64,000 nt of DNA from Struthio camelus. Its lineage: Eukaryota. The notes beneath the pieces are model-generated. The model saw only the letters and a program-made list of their open reading frames with translations. It was not told where the DNA came from and did not search any database. Numbering within the stretch: position 1 is the first letter of the stretch; each line of letters opens with the position of its first letter. The stretch spans positions 837,359 to 901,358 of the forward strand of contig NC_090970.1 in assembly GCF_040807025.1 (NCBI RefSeq). The letters are read 5' to 3'. Below, one piece after another: positions 3,971 through 50,989 of this stretch. The translations under genes and the position numbers were made by a program.

Positions 3971-3984
3971 CTGCGGGAGACCGG

Positions 3985-21110: not shown

Positions 21111-21124
21111 GGCCCCTCACTCAC

Positions 21125-21215: not shown

Positions 21216-21445
21216 CTGGGGGGGGGGGGGGGTCGACAAGGGACCCAGGCGTCCGGGGAGGGGACCCAGGCGTCCGGGCCCGGATCCCCCCCCCCCCTCC
21301 CTTCCCCACCTCCAACCTCCCCGTCCAGCACCCACGGGGGAGCCCAGGCGTCCGGGCTCCCCCCCCCTCCCCCCCGCCATGAAGGGACAGGGGTGCCTGG
21401 GGCCCCTCCCCCGCCGCGAGGGGCCCAGGCGTCCGGGGCACTCAC

Positions 21446-21498
21446 ACTTTGCGGCAATGGGGGCACCGGGCCAAGGTCCGCTCCGAGAACTCCGTCCA
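21446..21498 (-). CDS. PIP4P1: PIP4P1 exon 5
   Basis: [17 protein letters not shown](V) matches human [18 protein letters not shown]. Acceptor cccgcag, donor gt|GTGAGT. Confidence 0.9.
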
Positions 21499-21519
21499 CT
21501 GCGGGGGGGGAGGGGGCGT

Positions 21520-22920: not shown

Positions 22921-22924
22921 TCAC

Positions 22925-23030
22925 CAGGAAGGGGCTCCCGCAGTGGCCGCACGCCACCCGCCGCCCCCCGGGCTGCGGTTCGGGGCTGGGGGCTCCCGCC
23001 TGCACCGGGCCCAGGTTGATGATGCGTTTG
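22925..23030 (-). CDS. PIP4P1: PIP4P1 exon 4
   Basis: (C)[35 protein letters not shown] matches human [35 protein letters not shown]. Donor ctg|GTGAGC. Confidence 0.9.
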
Positions 23031-23099
23031 CTGGCGGAGGAACACAAACTGGTTAAACTGGGAGGACTGGGAGGACTGGGAGAGGCCGCTGGGAGCGGC

Positions 23100-23740
23100 C
23101 GGGGCAGCCCTGGCCCCTCCCAGTGCCTCCCAGTATGGCCCAGTGTCCTCCCGATCCCTCCCAGTACCCCCCGGTGTCTTCCCAGTATATCCCCGTGCCT
23201 CCCAGTATGGCCCAGTGCCCCCCGGGGTCCTCCCAGTATGTCCCAGAAGCTCCCAGTATAGTCCAGTGCCCCCAGCAGCCCCCAAGAGCCCTCCTAGTCC
23301 CTCCCCAGTACCTCCCAGTATGGCCCAGTGTCCTCCCACTGCCCTCCAGTGTTCTCCCAGTATATCCCAGTGCCTCCCAGTATGGCCTGCTTTCCCCCAA
23401 GAGCCCCCCAGAGCCCTTCCAGTCCTTCCCAGTATCCTCCCAGTTCGCCCCAGGGCCTCCCAATATGGCCCAGTGTCCTCCCACTCCCTCCTAGTGCTCC
23501 CCCCCGACCTCCCAGTATATCCCAGTGACTCCCAGTATGACCTGTTTCCCCCCAAGGGCCCCCCAGGACCCTTCCAATCCCTCCCAGTATATCCCAGTGC
23601 CTCCCAACATGGCCCAGTGCCACCCAGAACCCTCTCAATCTTCCCCCAGTGTCGTTCCAGTATATCCCAGTGCCTCCCAGTATAGCCCAGTCCCTCCCAC
23701 AGCCCCCCAGGACCCCCCGCCGCCCCACCCCCGCCCCCCA
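23100..23740. repeat. CCCAGTATRKCCCAGTGYCTCC-type repeats in PIP4P1 intron 3
   Basis: Read directly. Confidence 0.8.
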
Positions 23741-23757
23741 GGCCCTCCCAGTCTGAC

Positions 23758-23864
23758 CAGTAAGGCCGGGGGCAGGCGATGCGCTGGGACGACGCTTTGC
23801 AGACCAGGAGGCAGTTGCAGGGGCAGCGGACGTACTTCTTGCCGCCGGGCGCCGTGCGGATGGG
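23758..23864 (-). CDS. PIP4P1: PIP4P1 exon 3
   Basis: [35 protein letters not shown](C) matches human [36 protein letters not shown]. Acceptor cccgcag, donor tg|GTCAGA. 35 codons + 2 nt. Confidence 0.9.
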
Positions 23865-23869
23865 CTGCG

Positions 23870-25250
23870 GGCGGGCCGGACGCCTGGGCCCCCTGCCCGG
23901 ACGCCTGGGCCCCTCCCCGGACGCCTGGGCCCCCTGCCCGGACGCCTGGGCCCCTCCCCGGACGCCTGGGCCCCCTGCCCGGACGCCTGGGCCCCTCCCC
24001 GGACACCTGGGCCCCCTGCCCGGACGCCTGGGCCCCTTCCCGGACACCTGGGCCCCCTGCCCGGACACCTGGGCCCCCTGCCCGGACGCCTGGGCCCCTT
24101 CCCGGACACCTGGGCCCCCTGCCCGGACGCCTGGGCCCCTGCCCGGACGCCTGGGCCCCCTGCCCAGACGCCTGGGCCCCTTCCCGGACACCTGGGCCCC
24201 CTGCCCGGACACCTGGGCCCCCTGCCCGGACGCCTGGGCCCCCTGCCCGGACGCCTGGGCCCCTTCCCGGACACCTGGGCCCCCTGCCCGGACACCTGGG
24301 CCCCCTGCCCGGACGCCTGGGCCCCTCCCCGGACACCTGGGCCCCCTGCCCGGACGCCTAGGCCCCCTGCCCGGACGCCTGGGCCCCTGCCCAGACGCCT
24401 GGGCCCCTTCCCCGGACGCCTGGGCCCCTCCCTGGACACCTGGGTCCCTCCCCGGACACCTGGGTCCCTTTCCCCGGACACCTGGGCCCCTCCCTGGACA
24501 CCTGGGTCCCTTCCCCGGACGCCTGGGCCCCTCCCCGGACACCTGGGCCCCTTCCCCGCACACCTGGGCCCCTTCCCCGGACGCCTGGGCCCCCTCCCCG
24601 GACGACTGGGCCCCTCCCCGGACGCCTGGGCCCCTCCCTGGACACCTGGGCCCCTTCCCCGCACACCTGGGCCCCTTCCCCGGATGCCTGGGCCCCTTCC
24701 CCCGGACGCCTGGGCCCCTTCCCCGGACGCCTGGGTCCCTTCCTCGGACGCCTGGGCCCCTTCCCCGGACACCTCGGTCCCTCCCCGGACACCTGGGCCC
24801 CTTCCCCGGACACCTGGGCCCCTGCCCCGGACGCCTGGGCCCCTCCCCAGGACGCCTGGGCCCCCTCCCCGGACGCCTGGGCCCCTCCCCGGACGCCTGG
24901 GCCCCTTTCCCCGGACGCCTGGGCCCCTCCCCAGGACGCCTGGGCCCCTCCCCGGACGCCTGGGTCCCTCTCCCGGACGCCTGGGCCCCTCCCCCGGACG
25001 CCTGGGCCCCTTCCCGGACGCCTGGGCCCCTTCCCCGGACGCCTGGGCCCCTCCCCCGGACGCCTGGGCCCCTCCCCGGACACCTGGGCCCCCTTCCCCG
25101 GACGCCTGGGTCCCTTCCCCGGACGCCTGGGCCCCTTCCCGGACACCTGGGCCCCTTCCCCGGACACCTGGGCCCCTCCCCGGACGCCTGGGCCCCTTCC
25201 CCGGACGCCGGGGCCCCTCCCCGGACGCCTGGGCCCCCCCGGCCGCGGGG
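23870..25250. repeat. 21-bp minisatellite filling PIP4P1 intron 2
   Basis: Read directly. Confidence 0.9.
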
Positions 25251-25255
25251 CTCAC

Positions 25256-25434
25256 GGTGGCCTCGTTGCACACGTGACACTTCACCACGTGCTGGTGCGT
25301 TTTGCCCTCGACGCTGATGCGGCTCTGACACACGCGGCACGTGACCGCCGGCCCCGCCCCCCCTTCGGGGCTGCCCAATGGCGAGTAAGGGGGCGGGGCC
25401 TCCGCCCCTGGCCCCGCCCCCGGCGAGGCCCCGC
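25256..25434 (-). CDS. PIP4P1: PIP4P1 exon 2 (+/-1 nt at the 5' end)
   Basis: [59 protein letters not shown] matches human [49 protein letters not shown]. Donor acc|GTGAGC. Confidence 0.8.
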
Positions 25435-25645
25435 CTGCGGGAGACGCCCGGTAAAGGGGAGTGGCGTTAGCCCCGCCCCCTCCCCAAGCCCCGCCCCACT
25501 CCTCTAAGCCCCGCCCACCACGGCGCACCGCCCCACCTAGGAAGGCCCCGCCCACGTCAAGCCCCGCCCCCAGACCGCGGCGCCCTCTCAGGCCCCGCCC
25601 CTCCCAAAGCCCCGCCCCCTCCCCGTAGCCCCGCCCCCTCCTCAC

Positions 25646-25733
25646 CGGGGGGGGTCGCGGGTGCCGCCGCCGCCGCCGCCGGCCCCGGTTCGGGCTCGGC
25701 CGGCAGCAGCGGGGAGCGTTCGCCGTCCGCCAT
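25646..25733 (-). CDS. PIP4P1: PIP4P1 coding exon 1 (ATG 25733-25731; proposed donor g|GTGAGG about 25645; +/-1 nt)
   Basis: [29 protein letters not shown](G) matches human [18 protein letters not shown].... The exon 1/2 split is inferred from a frame change plus GTGAGG and tctcccgcag sites. Confidence 0.6.
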
Positions 25734-25749
25734 GGCCGCCCGTGCCGGC

Positions 25750-26550
25750 CGCCGTAGCGCCGCCCCCACGTGACGCCGGCGCCGCGCCGCGATTGGGCCC
25801 GGCCGGCCGCGCCGCCGCTCACGTGACCCCTCCCCCTCCCTCCGCGGCGCTCCCTCGCCACCACGTGACGCCGCGTCGCTAGGCGACCGCCCCGCCCCAG
25901 CGCTCCGCCGCGCTCGCCCGACGCCCTCCCCGCGCTTCTCATTGGCCCGCCGGCCCGCCCGCGCCACGTGACGCCGCGTTGCTAGGCGACCGCCTCCCCT
26001 AGGGCTCCGCCCCGCTCGCCCGACGCCCTCCCCGCGCTTCTCATTGGCCCGCCGCCCCGCCCGCACCACGTGACGCCGCGTCGCTAGGCGACCGCCCCGC
26101 CCATGCGCTCCGCCCCGCTCGCCCGACGCCCTCCCCGCGCTTCTCATTGGCCCGCCGCCCCGCCCGCGCCACGTGACGCAGCGTTGCTAGGCGACCGCCC
26201 CCCGCTCACCCACAGCGCGCCGCCGGCGGTCACGTGCGCCTCTCCGCCGCCTCCCATTGGCTCCGGGCGGTCGGGAGCGGAGCGGCGCCTTCACCCCCCT
26301 CCCCTCACCCAACTCCCCTTCCTTCCGCCCCGCCCACCCGCCGCCGCTGACCAATGGCGGCCGCCGCTGCCCGCCGTCGCCCGGGGCGACGCGGCGGCGG
26401 TGCCGGCGGACGGCGCCGCTGATTGGCTCTCCCGGCCGTGACGTCGGCGCGGGTGAGGGGGGGGCGGTTTTAGGCGGGCAGCGGCGACCGGCCCGCTCAT
26501 AACTGACCGGCGACTATGGACGGCAGGTGCGCGGTGCGCATGCGCGGTGG
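25750..26550. promoter_or_regulatory. PIP4P1 promoter / CpG island: about 105-bp unit tandemly repeated about 3.5 times, carrying a CCAAT box (TCTCATTGGCCC) plus a CACGTGAC E-box (CLEAR-like). Six CACGTG E-boxes in total (about 25821, 25864, 25967, 26069, 26172, 26231). Additional CCAAT boxes at about 26255, 26352 and 26425, and an NRF1 palindrome GCGCATGCGC at about 26536-26545.
   Basis: Repeat unit CGCGCTTCTCATTGGCCCGCC...CCACGTGACGCCGCGTTGCTAGGCGACCGCC...GCTCCGCCCCGCTCGCCCGACGCCCTCCC read at about 25930, about 26031 and about 26140, immediately upstream of the PIP4P1 ATG (25733, minus strand). Confidence 0.6.
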
Positions 26551-27099
26551 GGGGGGGCCGGACACCTGGGTCCCTCCCCGGACACCTGGGCCCCTCACCC
26601 GGGACGCCTGGGCCCCTTTCCCGGACACCTGGGCCCCTTCCCCTGGACACCTGGGCCCCTCCCCGGACGCCTGGGCCCCTCCCCGGACGCCTGGGCCCCT
26701 CCCGGGACGCCTGGGCCCCTCCCCGGACTCCTGGGCCCCTTCCCCGGACACCTGGGCCCCTTCCCCGGACGCCTGGGCCCTTCCCCGGACACCTGGGCCC
26801 CTTCCCCGGACACCTGAGTCCCTCCCCGGACGCCTGGGCCCATCACCCGGACGCCTGGGCCCCTTCCCCGGACGCCTGGGCCCCTCACCCGGACACCTGG
26901 GCCCGTTGCCCACTTCCGGGTTGCCCCTTTCCCTCGTTCCCCCCCCCCGTCCCCCGCCGGCCCGAACCAGCCAATCAGGAGGCGGCGCGGCGCTCACACC
27001 CCCCGCCGGGCCGGCCAATCAGAGTGCGGCTCTCCTGACACGCCTTCCCTCCCCCATCCACCCTAGGGGCCCAGGCGTCCGGGCCCTGCCCTACGCGTG

Positions 27100-30000
27100 G
27101 GCGGAAGGGGTCACGTGGGTCCCACGTCATGCCGCAGTCACGCTGTGGGTCCCGGGGCCACCCGTGGGTCCGGTCGTGGGTGTTGGGGCCGTCTGTGGGG
27201 CGCCGCGTGGGTCCCACCGTGGGTCCCGGTCCATCCGTGGGTCCGGTCGTGGGTCCTGGACCATCTGTGGGTCCTGTTATGGGTGCTGGGGTTGGTGATG
27301 GGTCTCACCATGGTTCCTGGTCCATCCGTGGGTCCGGTCGTGGGTCCTGGACCATCTGTGGGTCCTGTTATGGGTGCTGGGGTTGGTGATGGGTCTCACC
27401 ATGGTTCCTGGTCCATCCGTGGGTCCGGTCGTAGGTCCTGGACCATCTGTGGGTCCTGTTATGGGTGCTGGGGTTGGTGATGGGTCTCACCATGGTTCCT
27501 GGTCCATCCGTGGGTCCGGTCGTAGGTCCTGGACCATCTGTGGGTCCTGTTATGGGTGCTGGGGTTGGTCATGGGTCTCACCATGGCTCCTGGGCCATCC
27601 GTGGGTGCTGTTATGGGTGCTGGGGTTGGTGATGGGTCTCGCTCTGGGTCCTGGTCCATCCATGGGTCCTGTTATGGGTGCTGGGGTTGGTCAAGGGTCC
27701 CACCATGGCTCCTGGTCCATCCGTGGGTGCTGTTATGGGTGCTGGGGTTGGTCATGGGTCACGCTCTGGCTCCTGGCTGCATGCCCAAGTCATGCCATGG
27801 GTCCTGGGTTACATCATGGGTCTCCCCATAGGTGTTAGGTGCATCCATGGGTCACGTTCTGGGTTGTGGGTGCATCCATGGGTGCTGTTATGGGTGCTGG
27901 GGTTGATTATGGGTCTCACCATGGGTCCCGGTCTGTCCATGGGTCCTGTCATGGGTGCTGGGGTTGGTCATGGGTCTCGCTCTGGGTCCTGACTCCATGC
28001 CCAAGTCACACCGTGGGTCCTGGGTCACGCTATGAGTCTCACCATAGGTGTTAGGTGCATCCATGGGTCACGGTCTGGGTTGTGGGTGCATCTGTGGGTT
28101 ATATTACGGGTGCTGGGGTTGGTTATGGGTCTCACCATGGTTCCTGGTCCATCCGTGGGTCCCACCATGGTTCTTGATCCGTCTATGGGTGCTGTTATGG
28201 GTGCTGGGGTTGGTCAAGGGTCCCACCATGGCTCCTGGTCCATCCGTGGGTTCTGTTATGGGTGCTGGGGTTGGTCGTGGGTCCCACTATGGGTCCTGGT
28301 CTATCCATGGGTGCAGTTATGGGTGCTGGGGTTGGTCATGGGTCTCACTCTAGGTCTTGACTCCATGCCCAAGTCATGCCATGGGTCCTGGGTCATACCA
28401 TGGGTCTCACCACAGGTCTTGCATCCATCCATGGGTCGTGTTATGGGTGCTGGGGTTGGCCATGGGTCGCACGCTGGGTCCCGGGTCCATGCCCAAGTCA
28501 CGCCATGGGTCTCACGATAGGACTTAGGTTCATCCATGGGTCACTCCATAGGTCCTGGGCCCATTCCTGAGTCCTGCCAGGGGTTCTGGGACCAACTATG
28601 GGTCACACTATGGGTCCCAGGTCCATTCACGGGTCCCGCGATGGGTCCTGGGTCCATCCCTGAGTCCCACCATGCGTCCCAGGTCTATCCATGGGTCATA
28701 TTAGGGAGGCTGGGTCCATCCTTGAGTCCCACCATAGGTCTTGGGCCCATCCGTGGGTCCAACCATGGGTTCTGGGACCATCCCTGGGTCGTGCTATGGG
28801 TCCTGGGTCCATCCCTGAGTCCCACCATAGGTCCTAGGTCCATCCCTGAGCTGTGCTATGGGTCTCGGGGTGATCATGGAAGCCACCGTAGGTTCTGAAT
28901 CCATCTATGGGTTGCGGGTCGCACCACAGGTCATGCTATGGGTCCTGGCCTCACCCATGGGTCACGCCATGGATCCTGGGTTATGCTATGGGTCAGATAG
29001 TGGGTCATGGGTCCATCCATGAGTCCTGCCGTGGGTGGGTGCTAGGTCCATCAGTGAGTCCCACCATAGGTCCTGACACCATCCCTGGGTCCCACCATGA
29101 ACTTCAGGTCCATCCGTGGGTCACGCTATGGGTCTTGAGCCCAACTCTGGGGCGCAGCATGATTAGTAGCTCATAAAGTAGGTCCATCAAGGGGTGCTGG
29201 GTCCATCCCTGGGTCCCACCACGAGCTTCAGGTCCATGCCTGGGTCACGCTATGGGTGCTGGGTCCCTGTATGGGTCACAACATGCTTAGTAGATGACAA
29301 TGTAGGTTGTGTTATGGGTCTTGGGTCCATCTCTGGGTCACAACATGATTAGTTAGATCATGACATAGATCATGTTATGGGTGCTGGGTCCATCCCTGGG
29401 TCCCACCATGAGCTTCAGGTCCATGCCTGGGTCACGTTATGGCTCTTGGGTCCATCCCTGGGTCCCACCATGAGCTTCAGGTCCATCTGTGGGTCACGCT
29501 ATGGGTCTTGGGTCCATCTCTGGGGCACAGCGTGATTAGTAGCTCATAAAGTAGGTCCATCAAGGGGTGCTGGGTCCATCCCTGGGTCCCACCATGAGCT
29601 TCAGGTCCATCCGTGGGTCATGCTATGGGTCTTGGGTCCATCTCTGGGTCGCAGCATGCTTAGTAGATGACAGTGTAGGTCGTGTTATGGGTGCTGGGTC
29701 CATCCCTGGGTCCCACCACGAGCTTCATGTCCATCCGTGGGTCATGCTATGGGTGCTGGGTCCCTGTATGGGTCGCAACATGCTTAGTAGATGACAGTGT
29801 AGGTCGTGTTATGGGTGCTGGGTCCATCCCTGGGTCGCTGTATGGGTGCTGGGTCCATGCTTGGACCATGCTATGGGTCTTGGGTCCATCTCTGGGGCGC
29901 AACATGATTAGTTAGATCATGACATAGATCATGTTATGGGTCTTGGGTCCATCCCTGGGTCCCACCATGAGTTTCAGGTCCATGCCTGGGTCACGTTATG

Positions 30001-33000
30001 GGTCTTGGGTCCATGCCTGGGTCCCACCACGAGCTTCAGGTCCATCCGTGGGTCATGCTATGGGTGCTGGGTCCCTGTATGGGTCGCAACATGCTTAGTA
30101 GATGACAGTGTAGGTCGTGTTATGGGTGCTGGGTCCATCCCTGGGTCGCTGTATGGGTGCTGGGTCCATACTTGGACCATGCTATGGGTCTTGGGTCCAA
30201 CTCTGGGTCACAACATGCTTAGTAGATGACAATGTAGGTCGTTTTATGGGTCTTGGGTCCATCCATGAGTCCCTGTATGGGTGCTGGGTCCACCCCTGGG
30301 TCACGCTATGGGTCTTGGGTCCATCCCTGGGTCCCACCATGAGCTTCAGGTCCATGCCTGGGTCACGCTATGGGTGCTGGGTCCCTGTATGGGTCACAAC
30401 ATGCTTAGTAGATCACAACATAGGTCGTGTTATGGGTGCTGGGTCCATCCATGGGTCCCACCATGAGCTTAAGGTCCATGCCTGGGTCACGCTATGGGTG
30501 CTAGGTCCCTGTATGGGTCGCAACATGCTTAGTAGATGACAGTGTAGGTCGTGTTATGGGTGCTGGGTCAATCCCTGGGTCGCTGTATGGGTGCTGGGTC
30601 CATGCTTGGACCATGCTATGGGTCTTGGGTCCATCTCTGGGGCGCAACATGATTAGTTAGATCATGACATAGATCATGTTATGGGTGCTGGGTCCATCCC
30701 TGGGTCCCACCACGAGCTTCAGGTCCATGCCTGGGTCACGCTATGGGTGCTGGGTCCCCGTATGGGTCGCAACATGCTTAGTAGATGACAATGTAGGTCG
30801 TGTTATGGGTGCTGGGTCCATCCCTGGGTCCCTGTATGGGTGCTGGGTCCATGTATGGGTGCTGGGTCCATGCTTGGACCATGCTATGGGTCTTGGGTCC
30901 ATCTCTGGGGCGCAACATGATTAGTTAGATCACAACATAGGTTGTGTTATGGGTGCTGGGTCCATCCCTGGGTCCCACCACGAGCTTCAGGTCCATGCCT
31001 GGGTCACGCTATGGGTGCTGGGTCCATCCCTGGGTCCCACCACGAGCTTCAGGTCCATCCGTGGGTCATGCTATGGGTCTTGGGTCCATCTCTGGGGCAC
31101 AGCATGATTAGTAGCTCATAAGGTAGGTCCATCAAGGGGTGCTGGGTCCATCCCTGGGTCCCACCACGAGCTTCAGGTCCATGCCTGGGTCACGCTATGG
31201 GTGCTGGGTCCCTGTATGGGTCACAACATGCTTAGTAGATGACAATGTAGGTTGTGTTATGGGTCTTGGGTCCATCTCTGGGTCACAACATGATTAGTTA
31301 GATCATGACATAGATCATGTTATGGGTGCTGGGTCCATCCCTGGGTCCCACCATGAGCTTCAGGTCCATCCGTGGGTCACATTATGGGTCTTGGGTCCAT
31401 CCCTGGGTCCCACCACGAGCTTCAGGTCCATGCCTGGGTCACGCTATGGGTGCTGGGTCCCTGTATGGGTCACAATGTGATTAGTAGATTATAATGTAGG
31501 TCGTGTTATGGGTGCTGGGTCCATCCCTGGGTCCCACCACGAGCTTCAGGTCCATCCGTGGGTCACACTATGGGTCTTGGGTCCATCTCTGGGGCACGGC
31601 GTGATTAGTAGCTCATAAAGTAGGTCCATCAAGGGGTGCTGGGTCCATCCCTGGGTCCCACCACGAGCTTCAGGTCCATCCGTGGGTCACGCTATGGGTG
31701 CTGGGTCCCTGTATGGATCATGACATAGATCATGTTATGGGTGCTGGGTCCATCCCTGGGTCCCACTACAAGCTTCAGGTCCATGCCTGGGTCATGCTAT
31801 GGGTGCTGGGTCCCTGTATGGGTCGCAACATGCTTAGTAGATGACAGTGTAGGTTGTGTTATGGGTGCTGGGTCCATCCCTGGGTCCCTGTATGGGTGCT
31901 GGGTCCATACTTGGACCATGCTATGGGTCTTGGGTCCATCTCTGGGTCGCAGCATGCTTAGTAGATGACAATGTAGGTTGTGTTATGGGTCTTGGGTCCT
32001 TCTCTGGGTCACAACATGATTAGTTAGATCATGACATAGATCATGTTATGGGTGCTGGGTCCATCCCTGGGTCCCACCACGAGCTTCAGGTCCATCCCTG
32101 GGTCACGTTATGGGTCTTGGGTCCATCCCTGGGTCCCACCATGAGCTTCAGGTCCATCCCTGGGTCACGTTATGGGTCTTGGGTCCATCTCTGGGGCACA
32201 GCGTGATTAGTAGCTCATAAAGTAGGTCCATCAAGGGGTGCTGGGTCCATCCCTGGGTCCCACCATGAGCTTCAGGTCCATCCGTGGGTCATGCTATGGG
32301 TCTTGGGTCCATCTCTGGGTCGCAGCATGCTTAGTAGATGACAGTGTAGGTCGTGTTATGGGTGCTGGGTCCATCCCTGGGTCCCTGTATGGGTGCTGGG
32401 TCCATGTATGGGTGCTGGGTCCATGCTTGGACCATGCTATGGGTCTTGGGTCCATCTCTGGGGCGCAACATGATTAGTTAGATCATGACATAGATCATGT
32501 TATGGGTGCTGGCTCCATCCCTGGGTCCCACCACGAGCTTCAGGTCCATCCGTGGGTCATGCTATGGGTCTTGGGTCCATCTCTGGGGCACAGCATGATT
32601 AGTAGCTCATAAAGTAGGTCCATCAAGGGGTGCTGGGTCCATCCCTGGGTCCCACCACGAGCTTCAGGTCCATGCCTGGGTCACGCTATGGGTGCTGGGT
32701 CCCTGTATGGGTCACAACATGCTTAGTAGATGACAATGTAGGTTGTGTTATGGGTCTTGGGTCCATCTCTGGGTCACAACATGATTAGTTAGATCATGAC
32801 ATAGATCATGTTATGGGTGCTGGGTCCATCCCTGGGTCACGTTATGGGTCTTGGGTCCATCCCTGGGTCCCACCATGAGCTTCAGGTCCATCTGTGGGTC
32901 ACGCTATGGGTCTTGGGTCCATCCCTGGGTCCCACCACGAGCTTCAGGTCCATGCCTGGGTCACGCTATGGGTGCTGGGTCCCTGTATGGGTCACAATGT

Positions 33001-36000
33001 GATTAGTAGATTATAATGTAGGTCGTGTTATGGGTGCTGGGCCCATCCCTGGGTCCCACCACGAGCTTCAGGTCCATCCGTGGGTCACACTATGGGTCTT
33101 GGGTCCATCTCTGGGGCACGGCGTGATTAGTAGCTCATAAAGTAGGTCCATCAAGGGGTGCTGGGTCCATCCCTGGGTCCCACCACGAGCTTCAGGTCCA
33201 TCCGTGGGTCACGCTATGGGTGCTGGGTCCCTGTATGGATCATGACATAGATCATGTTATGGGTGCTGGGTCCATCCCTGGGTCCCACTACAAGCTTCAG
33301 GTCCATGCCTGGGTCATGCTATGGGTGCTGGGTCCCTGTATGGGTCGCAACATGCTTAGTAGATGACAGTGTAGGTTGTGTTATGGGTGCTGGGTCCATC
33401 CCTGGGTCGCTGTATGGGTGCTGGGTCCATACTTGGACCATGCTATGGGTCTTGGGTCCAACTCTGGGTCACAACATGCTTAGTAGATGACAATGTAGGT
33501 CGTTTTATGGGTCTTGGGTCCATCCATGAGTCCCTGTATGGGTGCTGGGTCCACCCCTGGGTCACGCTATGGGTCTTGGGTCCATCCCTGGGTCCCACCA
33601 TGAGCTTCAGGTCCATGCCTGGGTCACGCTATGGGTGCTGGGTCCCTGTATGGGTCACAACATGCTTAGTAGATCACAACATAGGTCGTGTTATGGGTGC
33701 TGGGTCCATCCATGGGTCCCACCATGAGCTTAAGGTCCATGCCTGGGTCACGCTATGGGTGCTAGGTCCCTGTATGGGTCGCAACATGCTTAGTAGATGA
33801 CAGTGTAGGTCGTGTTATGGGTGCTGGGTCAATCCCTGGGTCGCTGTATGGGTGCTGGGTCCATGCTTGGACCATGCTATGGGTCTTGGGTCCATCTCTG
33901 GGGCGCAACATGATTAGTTAGATCATGACATAGATCATGTTATGGGTGCTGGGTCCATCCCTGGGTCCCACCACGAGCTTCAGGTCCATCCGTGGGTCAT
34001 GCTATGGGTCTTGGGTCCATCTCTGGGTCGCAGCATGCTTAGTAGATGACAGTGTAGGTCGTGTTATGGGTGCTGGGTCCATCCCTGGGTCCCTGTATGG
34101 GTGCTGGGTCCATGTATGGGTGCTGGGTCCATGCTTGGACCATGCTATGGGTCTTGGGTCCATCTCTGGGGCGCAACATGATTAGTTAGATCACAACATA
34201 GGTTGTGTTATGGGTGCTGGGTCCATCCCTGGGTCCCACCACGAGCTTCAGGTCCATGCCTGGGTCACGCTATGGGTGCTGGGTCCATCCCTGGGTCCCA
34301 CCACGAGCTTCAGGTCCATCCGTGGGTCATGCTATGGGTCTTGGGTCCATCTCTGGGGCACAGCATGATTAGTAGCTCATAAGGTAGGTCCATCAAGGGG
34401 TGCTGGGTCCATCCCTGGGTCCCACCACGAGCTTCAGGTCCATGCCTGGGTCACGCTATGGGTGCTGGGTCCCTGTATGGGTCACAACATGCTTAGTAGA
34501 TGACAATGTAGGTTGTGTTATGGGTCTTGGGTCCATCTCTGGGTCACAACATGATTAGTTAGATCATGACATAGATCATGTTATGGGTGCTGGGTCCATC
34601 CCTGGGTCCCACCATGAGCTTCAGGTCCATCCGTGGGTCACATTATGGGTCTTGGGTCCATCCCTGGGTCCCACCACGAGCTTCAGGTCCATGCCTGGGT
34701 CACGCTATGGGTGCTGGGTCCCTGTATGGGTCACAATGTGATTAGTAGATTATAATGTAGGTCGTGTTATGGGTGCTGGGTCCATCCCTGGGTCCCACCA
34801 CGAGCTTCAGGTCCATCCGTGGGTCACACTATGGGTCTTGGGTCCATCTCTGGGGCACGGCGTGATTAGTAGCTCATAAAGTAGGTCCATCAAGGGGTGC
34901 TGGGTCCATCCCTGGGTCCCACCACGAGCTTCAGGTCCATCCGTGGGTCACGCTATGGGTGCTGGGTCCCTGTATGGATCATGACATAGATCATGTTATG
35001 GGTGCTGGGTCCATCCCTGGGTCCCACTACAAGCTTCAGGTCCATGCCTGGGTCATGCTATGGGTGCTGGGTCCCTGTATGGGTCGCAACATGCTTAGTA
35101 GATGACAGTGTAGGTTGTGTTATGGGTGCTGGGTCCATCCCTGGGTCCCTGTATGGGTGCTGGGTCCATACTTGGACCATGCTATGGGTCTTGGGTCCAT
35201 CTCTGGGTCGCAGCATGCTTAGTAGATGACAATGTAGGTTGTGTTATGGGTCTTGGGTCCTTCTCTGGGTCACAACATGATTAGTTAGATCATGACATAG
35301 ATCATGTTATGGGTGCTGGGTCCATCCCTGGGTCCCACCACGAGCTTCAGGTCCATCCCTGGGTCACGTTATGGGTCTTGGGTCCATCCCTGGGTCCCAC
35401 CATGAGCTTCAGGTCCATCCCTGGGTCACGTTATGGGTCTTGGGTCCATCTCTGGGGCACAGCGTGATTAGTAGCTCATAAAGTAGGTCCATCAAGGGGT
35501 GCTGGGTCCATCCCTGGGTCCCACCATGAGCTTCAGGTCCATCCGTGGGTCATGCTATGGGTCTTGGGTCCATCTCTGGGTCGCAGCATGCTTAGTAGAT
35601 GACAGTGTAGGTCGTGTTATGGGTGCTGGGTCCATCCCTGGGTCCCTGTATGGGTGCTGGGTCCATGTATGGGTGCTGGGTCCATGCTTGGACCATGCTA
35701 TGGGTCTTGGGTCCATCTCTGGGGCGCAACATGATTAGTTAGATCATGACATAGATCATGTTATGGGTGCTGGCTCCATCCCTGGGTCCCACCACGAGCT
35801 TCAGGTCCATCCGTGGGTCATGCTATGGGTCTTGGGTCCATCTCTGGGGCACAGCATGATTAGTAGCTCATAAAGTAGGTCCATCAAGGGGTGCTGGGTC
35901 CATCCCTGGGTCCCACCACGAGCTTCAGGTCCATGCCTGGGTCACGCTATGGGTGCTGGGTCCCTGTATGGGTCACAACATGCTTAGTAGATGACAATGT

Positions 36001-37760
36001 AGGTTGTGTTATGGGTCTTGGGTCCATCTCTGGGTCACAACATGATTAGTTAGATCATGACATAGATCATGTTATGGGTGCTGGGTCCATCCCTGGGTCA
36101 CGTTATGGGTCTTGGGTCCATCCCTGGGTCCCACCATGAGCTTCAGGTCCATCTGTGGGTCACGCTATGGGTCTTGGGTCCATCCCTGGGTCCCACCACG
36201 AGCTTCAGGTCCATGCCTGGGTCACGCTATGGGTGCTGGGTCCCTGTATGGGTCACAATGTGATTAGTAGATTATAATGTAGGTCGTGTTATGGGTGCTG
36301 GGCCCATCCCTGGGTCCCACCACGAGCTTCAGGTCCATCCGTGGGTCACACTATGGGTCTTGGGTCCATCTCTGGGGCACGGCGTGATTAGTAGCTCATA
36401 AAGTAGGTCCATCAAGGGGTGCTGGGTCCATCCCTGGGTCCCACCACGAGCTTCAGGTCCATCCGTGGGTCACGCTATGGGTGCTGGGTCCCTGTATGGA
36501 TCATGACATAGATCATGTTATGGGTGCTGGGTCCATCCCTGGGTCCCACTACAAGCTTCAGGTCCATGCCTGGGTCATGCTATGGGTGCTGGGTCCCTGT
36601 ATGGGTCGCAACATGCTTAGTAGATGACAGTGTAGGTTGTGTTATGGGTGCTGGGTCCATCCCTGGGTCCCTGTATGGGTGCTGGGTCCATACTTGGACC
36701 ATGCTATGGGTCTTGGGTCCATCTCTGGGTCGCAGCATGCTTAGTAGATGACAATGTAGGTTGTGTTATGGGTCTTGGGTCCGTCTCTGGGTCACAACAT
36801 GATTAGTTAGATCATGACATAGATCATGTTATGGGTGCTGGGTCCATCCCTGGGTCCCACCATGAGCTTCAGGTCCATCCCTGGGTCACGTTATGGGTCT
36901 TGGGTCCATCCCTGGGTCCCACCATGAGCTTGAGGTCCATGCCTGGGTCACGCTATGGGTCTTGGGTCCATCTCTGGGGCACAGCGTGATTAGTAGCTCA
37001 TAAAGTAGGTCCATCAAGGGGTGCTGGGTCCATCCCTGGGTCCCACCATGAGCTTCAGGTCCATCCGTGGGTCATGCTATGGGTCTTGGGTCCATCTCTG
37101 GGTCGCAGCATGCTTAGTAGATGACAGTGTAGGTCGTGTTATGGGTGCTGGGTCCATGCCTGGGTCCCACCACGAGCTTCAGGTCCATCTGTGGGTCACG
37201 CTATGGGTCTTGGGTCCATCTCTGGGGCACAGCGTGATTAGTAGATCATAAAGTAGGTCCATCAAGGGGTGCTGGGTCCATCCCTGAGTCCCACCACGAG
37301 CTTCAGGTCCATGCCTGGGTCACGCTATGGGTGCTGGGTCCCTGTATGGGTCGCAACATGCTTAGTAGATGACAGTGTAGGTCGTGTTATGGGTGCTGGG
37401 TCCATCCCTGGGTCCCTGTATGGGTGCTGGGTCCATGCTTGGACCATGCTATGGGTCTTGGGTCCATCTCTGGGTCACAACATGATTAGTTAGATCATGA
37501 CATAGATCATGTTATGGGTGCTGGGTCCATCCCTGGGTCCCACCACGAGCTTCAGGTCCACCCCTGGGTCACGCTATGGGTTTTGGATCCATCCCTGGGT
37601 CCCACTACGAGCTTCAGGTCCATCCGTGGGTCACGCTATGGGTCTTGGGTCCATCTCTGGGGCGCAGCGTGATTAGTAGCTCATAAAGTAGGTCCATCAA
37701 GGGGTGCTGGGTCCATCCCTGGGTCCCACCACGAGCTTCAGGTCCATGCCTGGGTCACGC
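27100..37760. repeat. About 10.6-kb satellite array between the PIP4P1 promoter and PNP. Monomers of about 110-130 bp (e.g. ATGGGTCTTGGGTCCATCCCTGGGTCCCACCACGAGCTTCAGGTCCATSC...). 27.1-29.1 kb is a divergent GGGTCC-rich part; 29.1-37.76 kb is organised in a 3261-bp higher-order repeat (about 2.6 copies).
   Basis: Identical ORF translations recur exactly 3261 nt apart: 30117/33378, 30281/33542, 30676/33937, 31732/34993, 32238/35499, 32808/36069, 33254/36515. There is internal 1522/1739 sub-periodicity (31732 vs 33254). Confidence 0.9.
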
Positions 37761-38045
37761 TATGGGTCTTGGGTCCAGCCGTGGCTCCAAGCGTGGCTTC
37801 TGCCTCGCGCCGGGGGTCCCGCCCCGGGGTCCCGCCCCCTCCCCGCTCCTCCCACGTCCTCCCACGGCCCGTCCCACCACCTCCCCTCCCCTTGCCCGGC
37901 CCCGCGCCCCCCCGCCCCCGGCCCCGCCACGTCCCTATGACCTCCCAGACTCCAAAACACGTGTCGGACGGGTCCCGCGTGTCTTCCTCTCGGGGGCGCC
38001 GGCGTTGGCAGCTACGAGGCCTGCGCGGCGGCGGCAGCCTGGGTG

Positions 38046-38178
38046 ATGGCCCGGGCCGGGGGGCCGCCCCCCCGCCTGGCCGTGGTCTGCGGCTCCGGCC
38101 TGGGCGAATTGGCCGAGGCGTTGAGCGAACCGCAGGCCTTCGACTACGCCGACCTGCCCCACTTCCCCCGCAGCACCG
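38046..38178 (+). CDS. PNP: PNP exon 2 (from first in-frame ATG 38046; the frame stays open upstream to about 37941)
   Basis: The human exon1/exon2 junction (ac|C TAT GAA) corresponds here to an acceptor ttggcag|C TAC GAG at 38012, so the true start may lie in an upstream mini-exon. M(M)ARAGGPPPRLAVVCGSGLGELAEALSEPQAFDYADLPHFPRST matches human [38 protein letters not shown]. Donor g|GTGAGT. Confidence 0.8.
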
Positions 38179-38199
38179 GTGAGTCCCGGGGTGGGGGAC

Positions 38200-40020
38200 T
38201 GGGAGGGACTGGGGGCAACTGGGAGGGTTTAGGGGGCGGATTCGAGGAGGTCTGGGGGGGGTCTGGGGGCAACTGGGGGGGTTCTGGGGGTCCTGGAGGG
38301 TAATGGGGGGGTCTGAGGGCCAACTGGGGGGGAACTGGGGGGTCCCGGGGGCAACTGGGAGGTGTTGGGGGGCCTTGGGGGGAACTGGGGGATCTGAGAG
38401 GCGACTGGGGAGAACTGGGGGGGAACTGGGGGGTCTGGGGGGCAACTGGGGCAACAGGGAGGCAACTGGGGAGTCTTTGGGGGGTCCTGGGGGGCAACTG
38501 GGGGTGACTGGGAGGGTCTTGGGGGGGGGAACTGGGAGTAACTGGGGGGTGTGGGGGGCAACTGGGGGGACGGGGGGAACTGGGGGGGACTGGAAGGTCT
38601 GGAGGGAACTGGGGGGGTCTGGGGAGAACTGGGGGGTCTGGGGGGAACTGGGGAGGACTGGGGGGGTTTGAGGGGAACTGGGGGGGAACTGGGGCTCTGG
38701 GGGGCTCTGGGGGGCTCTGGGGAGGACTGGGGGGGTCCTGGGGGGCTCTGGGGAGTCCTGGGGGGGTCCTGGGGGGCTCTGGGAGGACTGAGGGCTCTGG
38801 GGGGGTCCTGGGGGGCTCTGGGAGGTCCTGGGGGGGGTCCTGGGGGGCTCTGGGGGGTCCTGGGGGGGGTCCTGGGGGGCTCTGGGAGGACTGAGGGGTC
38901 CTGGGGGACTCTGGGGGGGGTCTGGGGAGGAACTGGGAGGTCCTGGGGGGGCTCTGGGGGGTTCTGGGGGGCTCTGGGGGGTCGTGGGGGGCTCTGGGAG
39001 GACTGGAGGGTCCTGGGGGCTCTGGGAGGGTCTGGGGGGCTCTGGGGGGTCGTGGGGGGCTCTGGGGGGTCCTGGGGGGCTCTGGGAGGACTGGAGGGTC
39101 CTGGGGGCTCTGGGGGGCTCTGGGGGGCTCTGGGGGGTCGTGGGGGGCTCTGGGGGGTCCTGGGGGGCTCTGGGAGGACTGGAGGGTCCTGGGGGCTCTG
39201 GGGGGGCTCTGGGGGGGCTCTGGGGGGTCCTGGGGGGCTCTGGGGGGTCCTGGGGGGGTCCTGGGGGGTCCTGGGGGGCTCTGGGGGGTCCTGGGGGGCT
39301 CTGGGAGGACTGGGGGGGTCCTGGGGGGCTCTGGGAGGTCCTGGGGGGCTCTGGGAGGTCCTGGGGGGTCCTGGGGGGCTCTGGGAGGACTGGGGGGGTC
39401 CTGGGGGGCTCTGGGAGGTCCTGGGGGGCTCTGGGAGGACTGGGGGGGTCCTGGGGGGCTCTGGGAGGTCCTGGGGGGCTCTGGGAGGACTGGGGGGGTC
39501 CTGGGGGGCTCTAGGGGGCTCTGGGGGGCTCTAGGGGGCTCTGGGGGGGCTCTGGGGGTCCTGGGGGGTCCTGGGGGGCTCTGGGAGTCCTGGGGGGCTC
39601 TGGGGGGGCTCTGGGGGGGCTCTGGGGGGGTCCTGGGGGTCCTGGGGGGCTCTGGGAGGCTCTGGGAGGTCCTGGGGGGGTCTGGGGGGGTCTGGGAGGC
39701 TCTGGGAGGTCCTGGGGGGGTCCTGGGGGGGTCTGGGAGGTCCTGGGGGGGTCCTGGGGGGGTCTGGGAGGCTCTGGGAGGTCCTGGGGGGGTCCTGGGG
39801 GGTCCTGGGGGGCTCTGGGAGGACTGGGGGGGTCCTGGGGGCTCTGGGGGGCTCTGGGGGGCTCTGGGGGGGTCCTGGGGGGGTCTGGGGAGGACTGGGG
39901 GTGTGTGGGAGCTCTTGGGGGGTCCTGGGGGGGTCCTGGAGGGGTCTGGGGGGCTCTGGGGGCTCTGGGGGGTCTGGGGGCTCTGGGGGGGTCCTGGGGG
40001 GCTCTGGGGGGTCTGGGGGG
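38200..40020. repeat. About 20-bp repeat (GGGGGCTCTGGGGGGTCCTG / GGGAACTGGGGGG)n filling PNP intron 2
   Basis: Read directly. Confidence 0.9.
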
Positions 40021-40065
40021 TCTGCCCCCCCCGGCGCTGACGGTGACGGGGGGTGGGGGGGGCAG

Positions 40066-40169
40066 TGGCGGGCCACGCCGGGCGCCTGGTGCTGGGCTGG
40101 CTGGGGGGGCGGCGCTGCGCCCTGCTGCAGGGGCGCTTCCACCTCTACGAGGGCTACAGCCCGGCCCAG
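40066..40169 (+). CDS. PNP: PNP exon 3
   Basis: Acceptor ggggggcag|tg. (V)[34 protein letters not shown] matches human [35 protein letters not shown]. Donor cag|GTGCGC. Confidence 0.9.
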
Positions 40170-40986
40170 GTGCGCCCGGACGCCGGGGCCCCCGCCCCCC
40201 CCACCCCCCCAGCCCTGCGCGCGCCCCACCCGGACGCCGGGGCCCCTCCTGAAACTCCTGGGCCCCTTCCCCGGACACCAGGGCCCCTCCCCCGGACGCC
40301 TGGGCCCCTCCCCGGACGCCTGGGCCCCTCCCCGGACGCCTGGGCCCCTCTCTGAACACCTGGGACCCCTCCCCGGACACCTGGGCCCCTCCCCGGACAC
40401 CTAGGCCACCTCCCCCGGACGCCTGGGCCCCCTCCCGGACGCCTGGGCCCCTTTCCTGGACGCCTGGGCCCCTTCCCCGGACGCCTGGGCCCCTTCCCCG
40501 GACACCTGGGCCCCTCCCCGGACACCTAGGCCACCTCCCCCGGACACCTGGGCCCCCTCCCGGACACCTGGGCCCCTTTCCCAGACACTGGGGCCCCTCC
40601 CCGGACGCCTGGGCCCCTCCTGAAACTCCTGGGCCCCTTCCCTGGACGCCTGGGCCCCCTCCCCGGACGCCTGGGCCCCCTCCCCCGGACACCTGGGCCC
40701 CTCCTGAAACTCCTGGGCCCCCCGTTCCCCGGACACCTGGGTCCCTCCCCGGACACCTGGGCCCCTTCCCCGGACACCTGGGCCCCTTTCCCAGACACTG
40801 GGGCCCTTCCCCGGACGCCTGGGCCCCTCCTGAAACTCCTGGGCCCCCTTCCCCGGACACCTGGGCCCCTCCTGAAACTCCTGGGCCCCCCGTTCCCCGG
40901 ACGCCTGGGCCCCGTGCCCGCACCCTGGCCCCCTCCCCGGCCCCCCGGCCCCCCACCGGCGGCCAGCTGAGGGCGGCCGGCGGCAG

Positions 40987-41162
40987 GTGGCCATGCCGGT
41001 GCGCACGCTGCGCCTGCTGGGCGCCCGCACGCTGGTGCTGACCAACGCGGCCGGCGGCCTCGGGCCCGAGCTGGCCCCCGGCGACCTGCTGGTGCTGCGC
41101 GACCACCTCAACCTGCCCGGCCTGGCCGCCTGCAGCCCCCTGGCCGGCCCCAACGACGAGCG
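40987..41162 (+). CDS. PNP: PNP exon 4
   Basis: VAMPVRTLRLLGARTLVLTNAAGGLGPELAPGDLLVLRDHLNLPGLAACSPLAGPNDE(R) matches human [59 protein letters not shown]. Donor cg|GTGAGC. Confidence 0.92.
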
Positions 41163-41189
41163 GTGAGCGCCCGGCGCCCCCGGCAGCGG

Positions 41190-42780
41190 CGCGGGGGGCC
41201 CAGGCGGCCCGGCGGGGACGGAGGCAGGGGGCCCAGGAGTCCGGGGAGGGAGGAGAGGGCCCAGGAGTCCGGGCGGCTGCGGAGGGAGGGGGCCCAGGAG
41301 TCCGGGGAGGGAGGAGGGGGCCCAGGAGTCTGGGGAGGGGGCCCAGGAGTCTGGGCGGCTGCGGAGGGAGGGGGCCCAGGAGTCCGGGGAGGGACGGAGG
41401 GGGCCCAGGAGTCCGGGCGGCTGCGGAGGGAGGGGGCCCAGGTGTCCGGGGAGGGACGGAGGGGGCCCAGGAGTCCGGGCGGCTGCAGAGGGAGGGGGCC
41501 CAGGTGTCCGGGAACAGAGGGAGGGGGCCCAGGAGTCCGGGGAGGGAGGGGGCCCAGGAGTCCGGGCAGCGGCGCGGGGGGCCCAGGCGGCCCGGCGGGG
41601 ACGGAGGGAGGGGGCCCAGGAGTCCGGGGAGGGAGGAGGGGGCCCAGGTGTCCGGGCAGCGGCGCGGGGGGCCCAGGCGGCCGGGCGGGACAGAGGGAGG
41701 GGGCCCAGGAGTCCGGGGAGGGAGGGGGCCCAGGAGTCCGGGCAGTGGCGCAGGGGGCCCAGGCGGCCGGGCGGGACAGAGGGAGGGGGCCCAGGAGTCC
41801 GGGGAGGGAGGGGGCCCAGGTGTTCGGGGAGGGAGGGGGCCCAGGTGTTCGGGAAGGCAGTGGAGGGAGGGGGCCCAGGTGTCTGGGGAGGGAGGAGGGG
41901 GCCCAGGAGTCCGGACGGGCAGGGAGGGAGGGGGCCCAGGAGTCCGGGGAGGGAGGGGGCCCAGGTGTCCGGGCAGCGGCGCGGGGGGCCCAGGCGGCCC
42001 GGCGGGGACGGAGGGAGGGGGCCCAGGAGTCTGGGGAGGGAGGGGGCCCAGGTGTCCAGGAAGGGAGGGATGGGGCCCAGGAGTCCGGGTGGCTGAGGAG
42101 GGAGGGGGCCCAGGAGTCCAAGGAGGGAGGAGGGGGCCCAGGCGTCCGGGGAGGGAGGAGGGGGCCCAGGAGTCCGGGGAGGGAGGGGGCCCAGGTGTCC
42201 GGGCAGCGGCGCGGGGGGCCCAGGCGGCCCGGCGGGGATGGAGGGAGGGGGCCCAGGAGTCCGGGGAGGGAGGGGGCCCAGGAGTCCGGGGAGGGAGGGA
42301 GGGGGCCCAGGAGTCCGGGCGGCTGCAGAGGGAGGGGGCCCAGGTGTCCGGGGACAGAGGGAGGGGGCCCAGGTGTTCGGGGAGGGAGGAGGGGGCCCAG
42401 GTGTTCGGGGAGGGAGGGAGGGGGCCCAGGCGTCCGGGCGGGCAGGGGCGGAGGGGGCCCAGGAGTCCGGGGACGGAGGGAGGGGGCCCAGGAGTCTGGG
42501 GAGGGGGCCCAGGTGTCCGGACGGCTGCGGAGGGAGGGGGCCCAGGAGTCCGGGGAGGGAGGGAGGGGCCCAAGCGTCCGGGGAGGGGCCCAGGCGTCCG
42601 GGAAAGGGGCCCAGGCGTCCGGGGAGGGGCCCAGGCGTCCGGGGAAGGGGCCCAGGCGTCCGGGAAAGGGCCCAGGTGTCCGGGGAGGGACCCAGGCGTC
42701 CGGGGAAGAGGCCCAGGCCTCCGGGAAAGAGGCCCAGGCGTCCGGGCCGGGACCCAGGCGTCCGGGAGAGGTTGGGTACG
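41190..42780. repeat. Minisatellite variant (GGGGGCCCAGGAGTCCGGGGAGGGAGGR...)n filling PNP intron 4
   Basis: Read directly. Confidence 0.9.
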
Positions 42781-42825
42781 ACCCCCCCCCCGACCCCCCC
42801 CCCACCTTGGGGTGCCGCCCCGCAG

Positions 42826-43016
42826 GTTCGGGCCCCGCTTCCCGGCCATGGCGGACGCCTACGACGCGGGGCTGCGGGCGCTGGCCCTGGAGCTGGCCGC
42901 CCGGGTGGCGCCGGAGCTGCGGGCCCGCGAGGGCGTCTACTGCGGCGTCGGCGGCCCCAGCTACGAGACGGTGGCCGAGTGCCGCTTCCTGAAGCTCGCC
43001 GGCGCCGACGCCGTGG
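42826..43016 (+). CDS. PNP: PNP exon 5
   Basis: Acceptor ccccgcag. (R)FGPRFPAMADAYDAGLRALALELAARVAPELRAREGVYCGVGGPSYETVAECRFLKLAGADAV(G) matches human [64 protein letters not shown]. Donor g|GTGAGT. Confidence 0.92.
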
Positions 43017-43259
43017 GTGAGTGGCGCCGCGGCGTGTAATTAGCCCGTAATTACAACTTTGGGCCTGTGTAATTAGCATGTAACAAGCCCATGCGTTGCC
43101 AATTGCCCGCATTGTAATTACAATGTAATAAGCACCGCGCGGCTTTGTAATTACCATGTAATTACACTGTAATTACTATGTAATTACTAGCTAATTACCG
43201 CACGGGTAGCTCGCAGTCGGCGTGTAAGGCTGCGCTCAGCCCACACTCAGCCCACACTC

Positions 43260-50965: not shown

Positions 50966-50989
50966 GTGAGTGCCGGACGCCTGGGCCCC

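Follow-up and report, generated by a model that had tools for sequence, protein, structure and literature searches.

A minisatellite-type array with nested block duplications in ostrich PNP intron 1

What is a tandem array with near-identical, kilobase-scale blocks doing beside the promoter of a housekeeping gene? The question is raised by a 64,000-nucleotide stretch of ostrich (Struthio camelus) DNA (contig NC_090970.1, positions 837,359 to 901,358; hereafter the window), which carries the genes PIP4P1 and PNP and, adjoining their promoter, a ~10.7-kb array of TGGGTC-type repeats (~27110 to 37790). A preliminary description of this DNA had read the array as a satellite with an exact 3261-bp higher-order repeat (HOR), lying directly upstream of PNP and between two housekeeping promoters. 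Had that reading held, a centromere-like HOR satellite in such a place would have been odd. In our judgment the array is very likely something else, namely, a hierarchically grown, noncoding minisatellite-type array within PNP intron 1, in GC-rich, dot-chromosome-like euchromatin, that was built by recombination, is probably old, and most likely has no function.

The position of the array depends on where PNP begins. We used human PNP and PIP4P1, serving as probes only, to identify the genes by tblastn. This placed PNP exons between 38070 and 45483 on the + strand and PIP4P1 exons between 25402 and 19710 on the - strand. In a protein search, the assembled PNP exons matched isoform X2 of Struthio camelus PNP, encoded on a 6.96-Mb contig, at 99% identity, with the emu protein next at 86%. 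Near 38 kb, no in-frame ATG is found upstream of SYEAC, and a candidate first exon encoding MTSQTPKHV at ~37.93 kb is ruled out by the annotated ostrich protein start, MDGS. The PNP start codon is at 26516 (+ strand), where the exon and its donor read ATGGACGGCAG/GTGCGCGG, and it lies 783 bp from that of PIP4P1 at 25733 (- strand). Joining this exon to exon 2 gives M-D-G-S(AG+C)-Y-E-A-C, the annotated N terminus MDGSYEAC, and exons 1 to 6 together give the annotated ostrich PNP protein, with an intact coding sequence. Seven birds have the same exon 1, ATGGNNGGNAG/GT: ostrich and, as the start of the annotated PNP gene, emu, goose, eagle, gull, cuckoo, and wagtail. PIP4P1 and PNP have one bidirectional CpG-island promoter in common, at ~25.7 to 26.5 kb (GC 80%, CpG observed/expected [o/e] 1.20).

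Because exon 1 lies at 26516 to 26526 and exon 2 begins at 38012, the array lies in PNP intron 1, of which it makes up 10,646 of 11,485 bp (93%). The preliminary description thus named the flanking genes correctly, but it put the start of PNP at ~38 kb, and the array it saw upstream of PNP, between two promoters, is an intronic one behind a single common promoter. The extent it gave, 29100 to 37760, takes in only the domain of 124-bp monomers, while blastn self-matches span 27155 to 37800 and degenerate units begin at ~27110.

The array is compound, with units of 31, 62, and 124 bp and nested duplications of 1491/1522 bp (Table 1). Within the window, a 1-kb array query returned one continuous blastn interval, 27155 to 37800, on the + strand only, and self-comparison revealed no inverted copies inside the array. 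Periods of 31, 62, 124, and 373 bp were seen by Tandem Repeats Finder (TRF) and in lag identities. In domain C, TRF gave a period of 124 with 73 to 84% matches, and ungapped identities were 0.53, 0.59, 0.62, and 0.77 at lags of 31, 62, 124, and 3261, respectively, compared with 0.26 ± 0.06 at random lags. The 124-bp monomer consists of four 31-bp subunits, the fourth of which is AT-rich (ATGCTTAGTAGATGACAA), with extra 31- or 62-bp modules in between. TTAGTAGMT anchors, 46 in the domain, are spaced mostly 124 or 249 bp apart.

In composition, the array stands apart from its surroundings, with a GC content of 55 to 61% versus ~80% in the flanks and a CpG o/e of 0.25 to 0.34 versus 1.20 in the promoter. 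C/T variants at CpG positions are recurrent among the repeat units (GGTCACGC, GGTCATGC, and GGTCACGT; CCACGAGC and CCATGAGC), and together with the CpG depletion they are consistent with methylation-driven decay. On the sense strand, GGG is threefold commoner than CCC (62 versus 20 per kb). The array contains no canonical G-quadruplex (G4) motif, in contrast to PNP intron 2, with 22.8 per kb. We rejected strand asymmetry as proof of transcription because the sign of the GC skew differs among PNP introns. In ostrich, GGGTCACGTGGG(TCC) borders the array on its 5' side (27108 to 27125), and in goose it is itself repeated four times (L002 3445-3515); that it seeded the TGGGTC unit is a speculative possibility.

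The kilobase-scale blocks were mapped by a diagonal-run scan for near-perfect ungapped runs, with an explicit list of mismatches. Between 26 and 40 kb, the commonest 20-mer self-offset is 3261 (3278 shared k-mers), followed by 1522, 4783 (3261 + 1522), 1491, and 1739, which bears out the diagonal reported earlier. The two matching stretches, 30049 to 33500 and 33310 to 36761, are near-identical as described (99.5%), but they are not exact: they differ at 16 of 3452 bp. Ten of these mismatches fall inside one 44-bp patch, and 2617 bp (30792 to 33408) match exactly. The copy-2 form of the patch (33990 to 34033) is found exactly again at 29611, 32282, 35543, and 37065, and the patch looks like a short gene-conversion tract. 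An internal 1522/1739 substructure had also been proposed and is real: 31330 to 31978 equals 32852 to 33500 (offset 1522, 8 mismatches), and 34591 to 35635 equals 36113 to 37157. In addition, 31023 to 31347 equals 32514 to 32838 (offset 1491, 1 mismatch). The proposed monomer size of ~110 to 130 bp agrees with the 124 bp found, whereas seven pairs of open reading frames (ORFs) with identical translations, displaced by 3261, become five at a minimum of 60 amino acids (aa), a count that depends on the length threshold.

What the diagonal does not amount to is a long HOR array. The 3261-bp unit is present in only ~2.06 copies, and the 6522 diagonal is confined to ~200 to 250 bp (30001 to 30250). 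With ~2.06 copies in a 10.7-kb intronic array, we therefore see a single recent block duplication and not a centromere-type HOR. The multimonomer block structure implied by the term stands; the centromere-type array does not, and the array is almost certainly not centromeric.

The array is noncoding, as judged from its sequence. Its periods of 31, 62, and 124 are not multiples of 3, its longest ORF is about 140 to 162 aa, and four array ORFs (78 to 162 aa, the longest included) had no Pfam match at an E value of ≤0.1. A protein-coding repeat was rejected on the grounds of period, short frames, and lack of Pfam homology. A structured RNA gene array was likewise rejected, as no Rfam family matched window positions 25000 to 39000 at gathering thresholds. 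Nor is the array derived from exons ("exon stuttering"), because the best blastn score of exons 1 and 2 against intron 1, 23.8 bits, is under the published threshold of 42.1 bits.

Is this array peculiar to ostrich? For comparison, we took the PNP locus from six other birds (emu, goose, white-tailed eagle, gull, cuckoo, and wagtail) and from one turtle. The core CTATGGGTC is common to the intron 1 arrays of ostrich, emu, goose, eagle, gull, and cuckoo, and in every species carrying the array it ends 7 to 220 bp upstream of exon 2. Except in cuckoo, ATGGGT motifs in these arrays lie 31 bp (12 + 19) apart or at multiples of that distance. The consensus 31-mers have TATGGGTSYTGG...GTCACSC in common, with identities of 24/31 between ostrich and emu and ~18/31 between ostrich and eagle; this range of ~58 to 77% is compatible with slow neutral drift. 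In an all-versus-all blastn comparison, cross-species high-scoring segment pairs (HSPs) were found almost only within intron 1 arrays and always on the + strand (e.g., 234 HSPs for emu to eagle, the best at 173 bits, and 336 bits for gull to eagle), the exceptions involving mostly a second ostrich array at 54056 to 55224. Almost every intron gives cross-matches when ostrich is compared with emu, and the simple G-rich array of intron 2 does so in all sampled neognaths; persistence is therefore not unique to intron 1. The wagtail intron 1 array is unrelated or unrecognizably diverged, and turtle intron 1 has other repeats, without CTATGGGTC. In wagtail, a 129-bp unit (L006 3920-4791) spans the acceptor and the opening bases of exon 2 (ccccag/TTACGAGGCCTG), an instance of exon stuttering.

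The species differ in how the array has been elaborated. It is shortest in gull (0.5 kb) and longest in ostrich (10.7 kb), a ~20-fold range. The AT-rich fourth subunit is missing from the emu, goose, eagle, gull, and cuckoo arrays and is ostrich specific among the species sampled; therefore, the 124-bp ostrich monomer is not present in these five arrays either. Recent multiunit block duplications, on the other hand, are not confined to ostrich: emu has one of 351 bp (offset 372, 1 mismatch), eagle has one of 724 bp (offset 727, 3 mismatches) along with several more, and goose has them too, so that HOR-like blocks are general to the array and not an ostrich oddity. Because core-sharing arrays lie at the same position and on the same strand in emu, goose, eagle, gull, and cuckoo, a 31-bp-unit array was probably present in intron 1 before the palaeognath-neognath split and would have been remodeled in each lineage by concerted evolution. 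This split dates to roughly 70 to 110 million years, depending on the dating study.

The surroundings of the array are repeat saturated. TRF tandem repeats cover 49,111 of the 64,000 bases of the window (77%), and nearly every intron and spacer has an array of its own, the intron 1 array being the largest (10.7 kb, with its 3.26-kb block duplication). The orthologous loci of the other birds are 60 to 85% tandem repeat. OSGEP, CHD8, and SUPT16H are genes of the human 14q11 region, as are PNP and PIP4P1. In chicken they are on dot chromosome 34 (PMC12954441 supplement), and by this synteny the ostrich locus may be called dot-chromosome-like. In the introns of genes on chicken dot chromosomes, imperfect repeats tens to hundreds of base pairs long have expanded locally and fill the sequence, a state termed "sequence stuttering" (PMC12954441), and median intron repeat coverage on these chromosomes is 7 to 93% (PMC12954441, Genome Biol Evol 2026). 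Stuttering also affects intergenic DNA, and G4-linked instability or non-crossover gene conversion has been proposed as its mechanism (PMC12954441). The ostrich assembly that this paper names is GCA_040807025.1. In the telomere-to-telomere (T2T) zebra finch assembly, minisatellite density in dot-chromosome euchromatin is 51%, concentrated in introns (bioRxiv 10.1101/2025.10.14.682431). The context that the preliminary description had thought unusual, with tandem repeats over 77% of the window, is thus as published for bird dot-chromosome euchromatin. The centromeric HORs of the T2T chicken assembly, made of the 41-bp CNM repeat (PMC9974502), are a different object from the PNP intron 1 array. 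A literature search with the array sequence string returned no paper, and searches on ostrich satellites and conserved intronic repeats returned nothing for this locus.

Taken together, the nested periods suggest how the array may have grown. It would have started from an ancestral 31-bp unit (~TATGGGTSCTGGGTCCATCCCTGGGTCACGC), which gave rise to 62-bp units and then to the ostrich-specific 124-bp unit. Multimonomer blocks would then have been duplicated, at offsets of ~373, 1491/1522, and lastly 3261 bp. The driver, we infer, was out-of-register recombination, either unequal exchange between sister chromatids or homologues or non-crossover gene conversion, and replication slippage is a possible added contributor. 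The 3261-bp duplication would be the latest event, leaving two near-identical copies plus ~190 bp, and would have been followed by at least one short conversion tract. The array would be transcribed within the PNP pre-mRNA and then spliced out. On the assumption of neutrality, it most likely has no sequence-specific function.

It is also important to ask how far this array resembles systems already known. Its closest likeness is to the stuttering, or minisatellite, euchromatin of avian dot chromosomes (PMC12954441; bioRxiv 10.1101/2025.10.14.682431; PMC9974502), in which imperfect repeats of tens to hundreds of base pairs likewise fill the intron of a GC-rich gene. Here, too, the array is TRF detected and bounded by intact exons (it ends at ~37790, 220 bp before exon 2), the neighborhood is 60 to 85% tandem repeat, and 14q11-type genes are on chicken dot chromosome 34. 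Two differences are apparent: published expansions are described as independent in sequence from species to species, whereas the PNP arrays share a 31-bp period (emu, goose, eagle, and gull) and a core and strand (also cuckoo), and the ostrich array is without exon-derived copies (23.8 versus 42.1 bits). Classical GC-rich minisatellites, or variable-number tandem repeats, are similar in having units of tens of base pairs, arrays in the kilobase range, strand asymmetry (G over C and T over A), and a mosaic of internal variant repeats with conversion-like patches. The ostrich array differs from them in its hierarchy, which extends to 124-bp monomers and kilobase-scale blocks, and in its apparent persistence over deep bird lineages; turnover of typical minisatellites is far faster than such persistence would allow. 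Alpha-satellite-type HORs also combine monomers that are ~75 to 80% alike with multimonomer blocks that are >99% alike. They differ in having tens to thousands of copies rather than 2 and a centromeric rather than an intronic and euchromatic setting, and the block boundaries at PNP form an irregular mosaic of nested duplications with no single regular HOR unit.

Several other explanations have to be weighed. The array might be a conserved cis-acting element under selection, either an iterated regulatory module that arose from an E-box-like seed (GGGTCACGTGGGTCC) and acts on the PIP4P1/PNP promoter or a sense-strand G-triplet array with a part in defining intron 1 of a very GC-rich transcript. 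Such a role would fit the core CTATGGGTC, strand, and exon 2-adjacent position common to six birds, the 31-bp period common to all of them except cuckoo, the presence of GGGTCACGTGGG at the 5' edge of the ostrich array (27108) and in four copies in goose, and the threefold excess of GGG over CCC. Against it, array length varies ~20-fold, the motif is lost or unrecognizable in wagtail and absent in turtle, and ostrich intron 1 has just two CACGTG sites. The CpG o/e of 0.25 inside the array and its C/T variants fit methylation decay and not maintained binding sites, other introns cross-match too (ostrich with emu, and intron 2 in the sampled neognaths), and the divergence of the consensus 31-mers is of the extent compatible with slow neutral drift. 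We consider selection of this kind unlikely. The stronger claim, that an ancient array with a 31-bp period, core CACSCTATGGGTCYTGG, transcribed-strand orientation, and exon 2-adjacent position has been kept for a cis function since before the palaeognath-neognath split, seems to us slightly more doubtful still. If it were true, some dot-chromosome stuttering arrays would be conserved functional elements and not purely unstable by-products.

Alternatively, an assembly artifact could account for the 3261-bp duplication or for some of the length of the array, for instance a spurious tandem copy or a repeat resolved wrongly where sequencing is difficult. The 2617 bp that are exactly alike between copies could be taken in this sense, and HiFi coverage drop-outs and assembly trouble are known from dot-chromosome minisatellite regions. 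However, the copies have 16 differences between them, including the patch whose copy-2 form matches four other units, and they are set within a mosaic of older duplications with 98.8 to 99.7% identity. The window is without Ns, similar blocks occur in the independently assembled emu, goose, and eagle arrays, and 10.7 kb fits within single long reads. An artifact is thus very improbable. Least credible of all is the earlier reading, that the array belongs to a centromeric or heterochromatic satellite family and has true HOR organization; to this we attach almost no weight. Diverged monomers (73 to 84% matches) alongside near-identical multimonomer blocks do recall such a family, but only ~2.06 block copies are present, the 10.7 kb lie within a housekeeping-gene intron and adjoin a CpG-island promoter, orthologous arrays occupy the same intron in other birds, and the 1-kb array query matches only 27155 to 37800 within the window.

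Some observations also weigh against our own account of a neutral intronic array built by recombination. For the joining of exons 1 and 2 by splicing, the support comes from the NCBI protein model and from cross-species conservation. The GC-rich 210 bp before exon 2 (GC 78%, CpG o/e 0.92) may hold an extra internal promoter near 37.8 to 38.0 kb. Recombination and slippage are read from the pattern of the repeats. The core, period, strand, and position retained over deep bird lineages could reflect constraint. Orthologous introns of related species usually have different repeats (PMC12954441), a tendency from which the PNP intron 1 array departs. Finally, the locus specificity of the array was seen within 64 kb only, and a related TGGGTC array is present at 54056 to 55224.

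We conclude that the array is an ordinary example of the recently described intronic stuttering/minisatellite class, with the added point that it is probably old and is positionally conserved. As a typical intronic minisatellite expansion, it therefore poses no challenge to current views. Its value is modest. On the one hand, it is a clean worked example of array growth through units of 31, 62, and 124 bp up to kilobase-scale blocks with conversion patches. On the other hand, it indicates that an orthologous stuttering array is able to keep its period, core, and orientation over deep bird lineages, and an array kept for so long qualifies the published impression of independent expansion in each species. 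PNP intron 1 is also a tractable locus for asking whether such arrays are neutral or constrained.

Table 1. Features of the PIP4P1/PNP locus in the window and of orthologous intron 1 arrays (window positions unless a locus label is given)
Feature	Coordinates	Strand	Basis or remarks
PIP4P1/PNP common head-to-head promoter region	25734..26515	.	Between the two ATGs
PNP exon 1, coding part ATG GAC GGC AG (ATGGACGGCAG)	26516..26526	+	Donor GT at 26527
PNP intron 1, 11,485 bp	26527..38011	+	Donor 26527, acceptor AG 38010-38011; fits annotated ostrich protein
21-bp dispersed minisatellite block (CCGGACACCTGGGCCCCTCC), outside the TGGGTC array, 5' end of intron 1	26558..26904	+	TRF, family counts
Array domain A, degenerate units rich in CpG (CGTGGGTCC) that merge into 61/91-bp units with TGGGTGCTGGGGTTGGTSATGGGTCTCACCATGG	~27110..28500	+	GC 60.6%, GC skew +0.20
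Array domain B, degenerate 31/62/93-bp units	28501..29079	+	TRF and unit inspection
Array domain C (region of the preliminary description), 124-bp monomers	29080..37790	+	TRF; GC 55%, CpG o/e 0.25
3261-bp block duplication, copy 1	30049..33309	+	Diagonal-run scan, k-mer offsets
3261-bp block duplication, copy 2	33310..36570	+	Diagonal-run scan, k-mer offsets
3261-bp block, partial third copy, ~190 bp	36571..36761	+	Diagonal reaches 33500/36761
44-bp patch, copies 1 and 2 differ at 10 positions	30729..30772	+	Mismatch list
Older duplication inside 3261-bp unit	31023..31978	+	Offsets 1491 and 1522
1045-bp block	36113..37157	+	= 34591-35635 (offset 1522, 9 mismatches); = 31330-32374
Intron 1 3' end, unique, pyrimidine-rich, acceptor ...ttggcag/C	37801..38011	+	GC 78%, GC skew -0.36
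PNP exon 2, codes (S)YEACAAAAAWVMARAGGPPPRLAVVCGSGLG...PRST	38012..38178	+	tblastn with human and ostrich PNP
Emu array	L001 11313-14192	+	62-bp period x46.6, PNP intron 1
Goose array	L002 3443-6470	+	155 = 5x31 bp, PNP intron 1
Eagle array	L003 5354-10455	+	62-bp period x84.8, PNP intron 1
Gull array	L004 4059-4559	+	124-bp period, PNP intron 1
Cuckoo array	L005 3947-4635	+	22-bp unit CTATGGGTCCCTATGGGTCTCT, PNP intron 1

The common promoter has a repeat of its own. At 25861 to 26201, a 103-bp unit is repeated 3.3 times in tandem, with CCACGTGAC and CATTGG in each unit, and the region also has more CCAAT boxes and one TGACGTC site. By motif type, CCACGTGAC is an E-box resembling the coordinated lysosomal expression and regulation (CLEAR) element, and CATTGG is an inverted CCAAT box. 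Comparable promoter-module repeats bearing CACGTG were seen in emu (L001 9185-9729), goose (L002 1825-2729), eagle (L003 2512-2774), and wagtail (L006 2487-2650), those of eagle and wagtail containing CCAAT in addition.

A dispersed 21-bp minisatellite (unit CCCGGACGCCTGGGCCCCTTC, core GGACRCCTGGG) has 505 copies in the window, in both orientations and in many introns and spacers. Its 17 blocks there include ~26-573, 2978-4916, 11026-12099, 16583-17732, 19849-25223, 26560-26891, 40294-42753, and 45687-51896. The emu locus (L001, 36.7 kb) has 399 copies and one turtle PNP intron 1 array (L007 3166-5245) has 28, while the family is essentially missing in goose, eagle, gull, and cuckoo; shuffled controls gave <1 copy. 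As it is dispersed and not locally seeded, this family is a poor fit to the idea of a local origin of stuttering. The turtle PNP locus (Carettochelys insculpta, L007) is 73% GC and 64% tandem repeat, with different motifs, and for this locus a stuttering-like state is therefore not confined to birds.

Downstream of PNP, the second TGGGTC-type array (54056 to 55224) has a 69-bp period (TGGGTCTCCTATGGGTCCCCTGTGGGTCCCC) and matches the eagle and cuckoo intron 1 arrays by blastn. The gene next to PNP in goose, eagle, and gull belongs to the Ndr family. PNP intron 2 carries a (GGGGGGTCCT)n array in ~175 copies (38256 to 40022), with a GC skew of +0.56 and a CpG o/e of 0.07, its G4 motifs lying on the sense strand, and intron 2 of emu, goose, cuckoo, and wagtail has G-run-rich arrays with other units. 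The ostrich PNP protein itself (window positions 38070 to 45640) is only 55 to 71% identical to the human protein across exons. It is strongly enriched in A, G, R, L, and P, and its C terminus is a low-complexity acidic tail rich in glutamate (DDEEEEEAEGRRGEEEEEEGDG), a composition and tail typical of the GC-biased "hidden" genes of birds.

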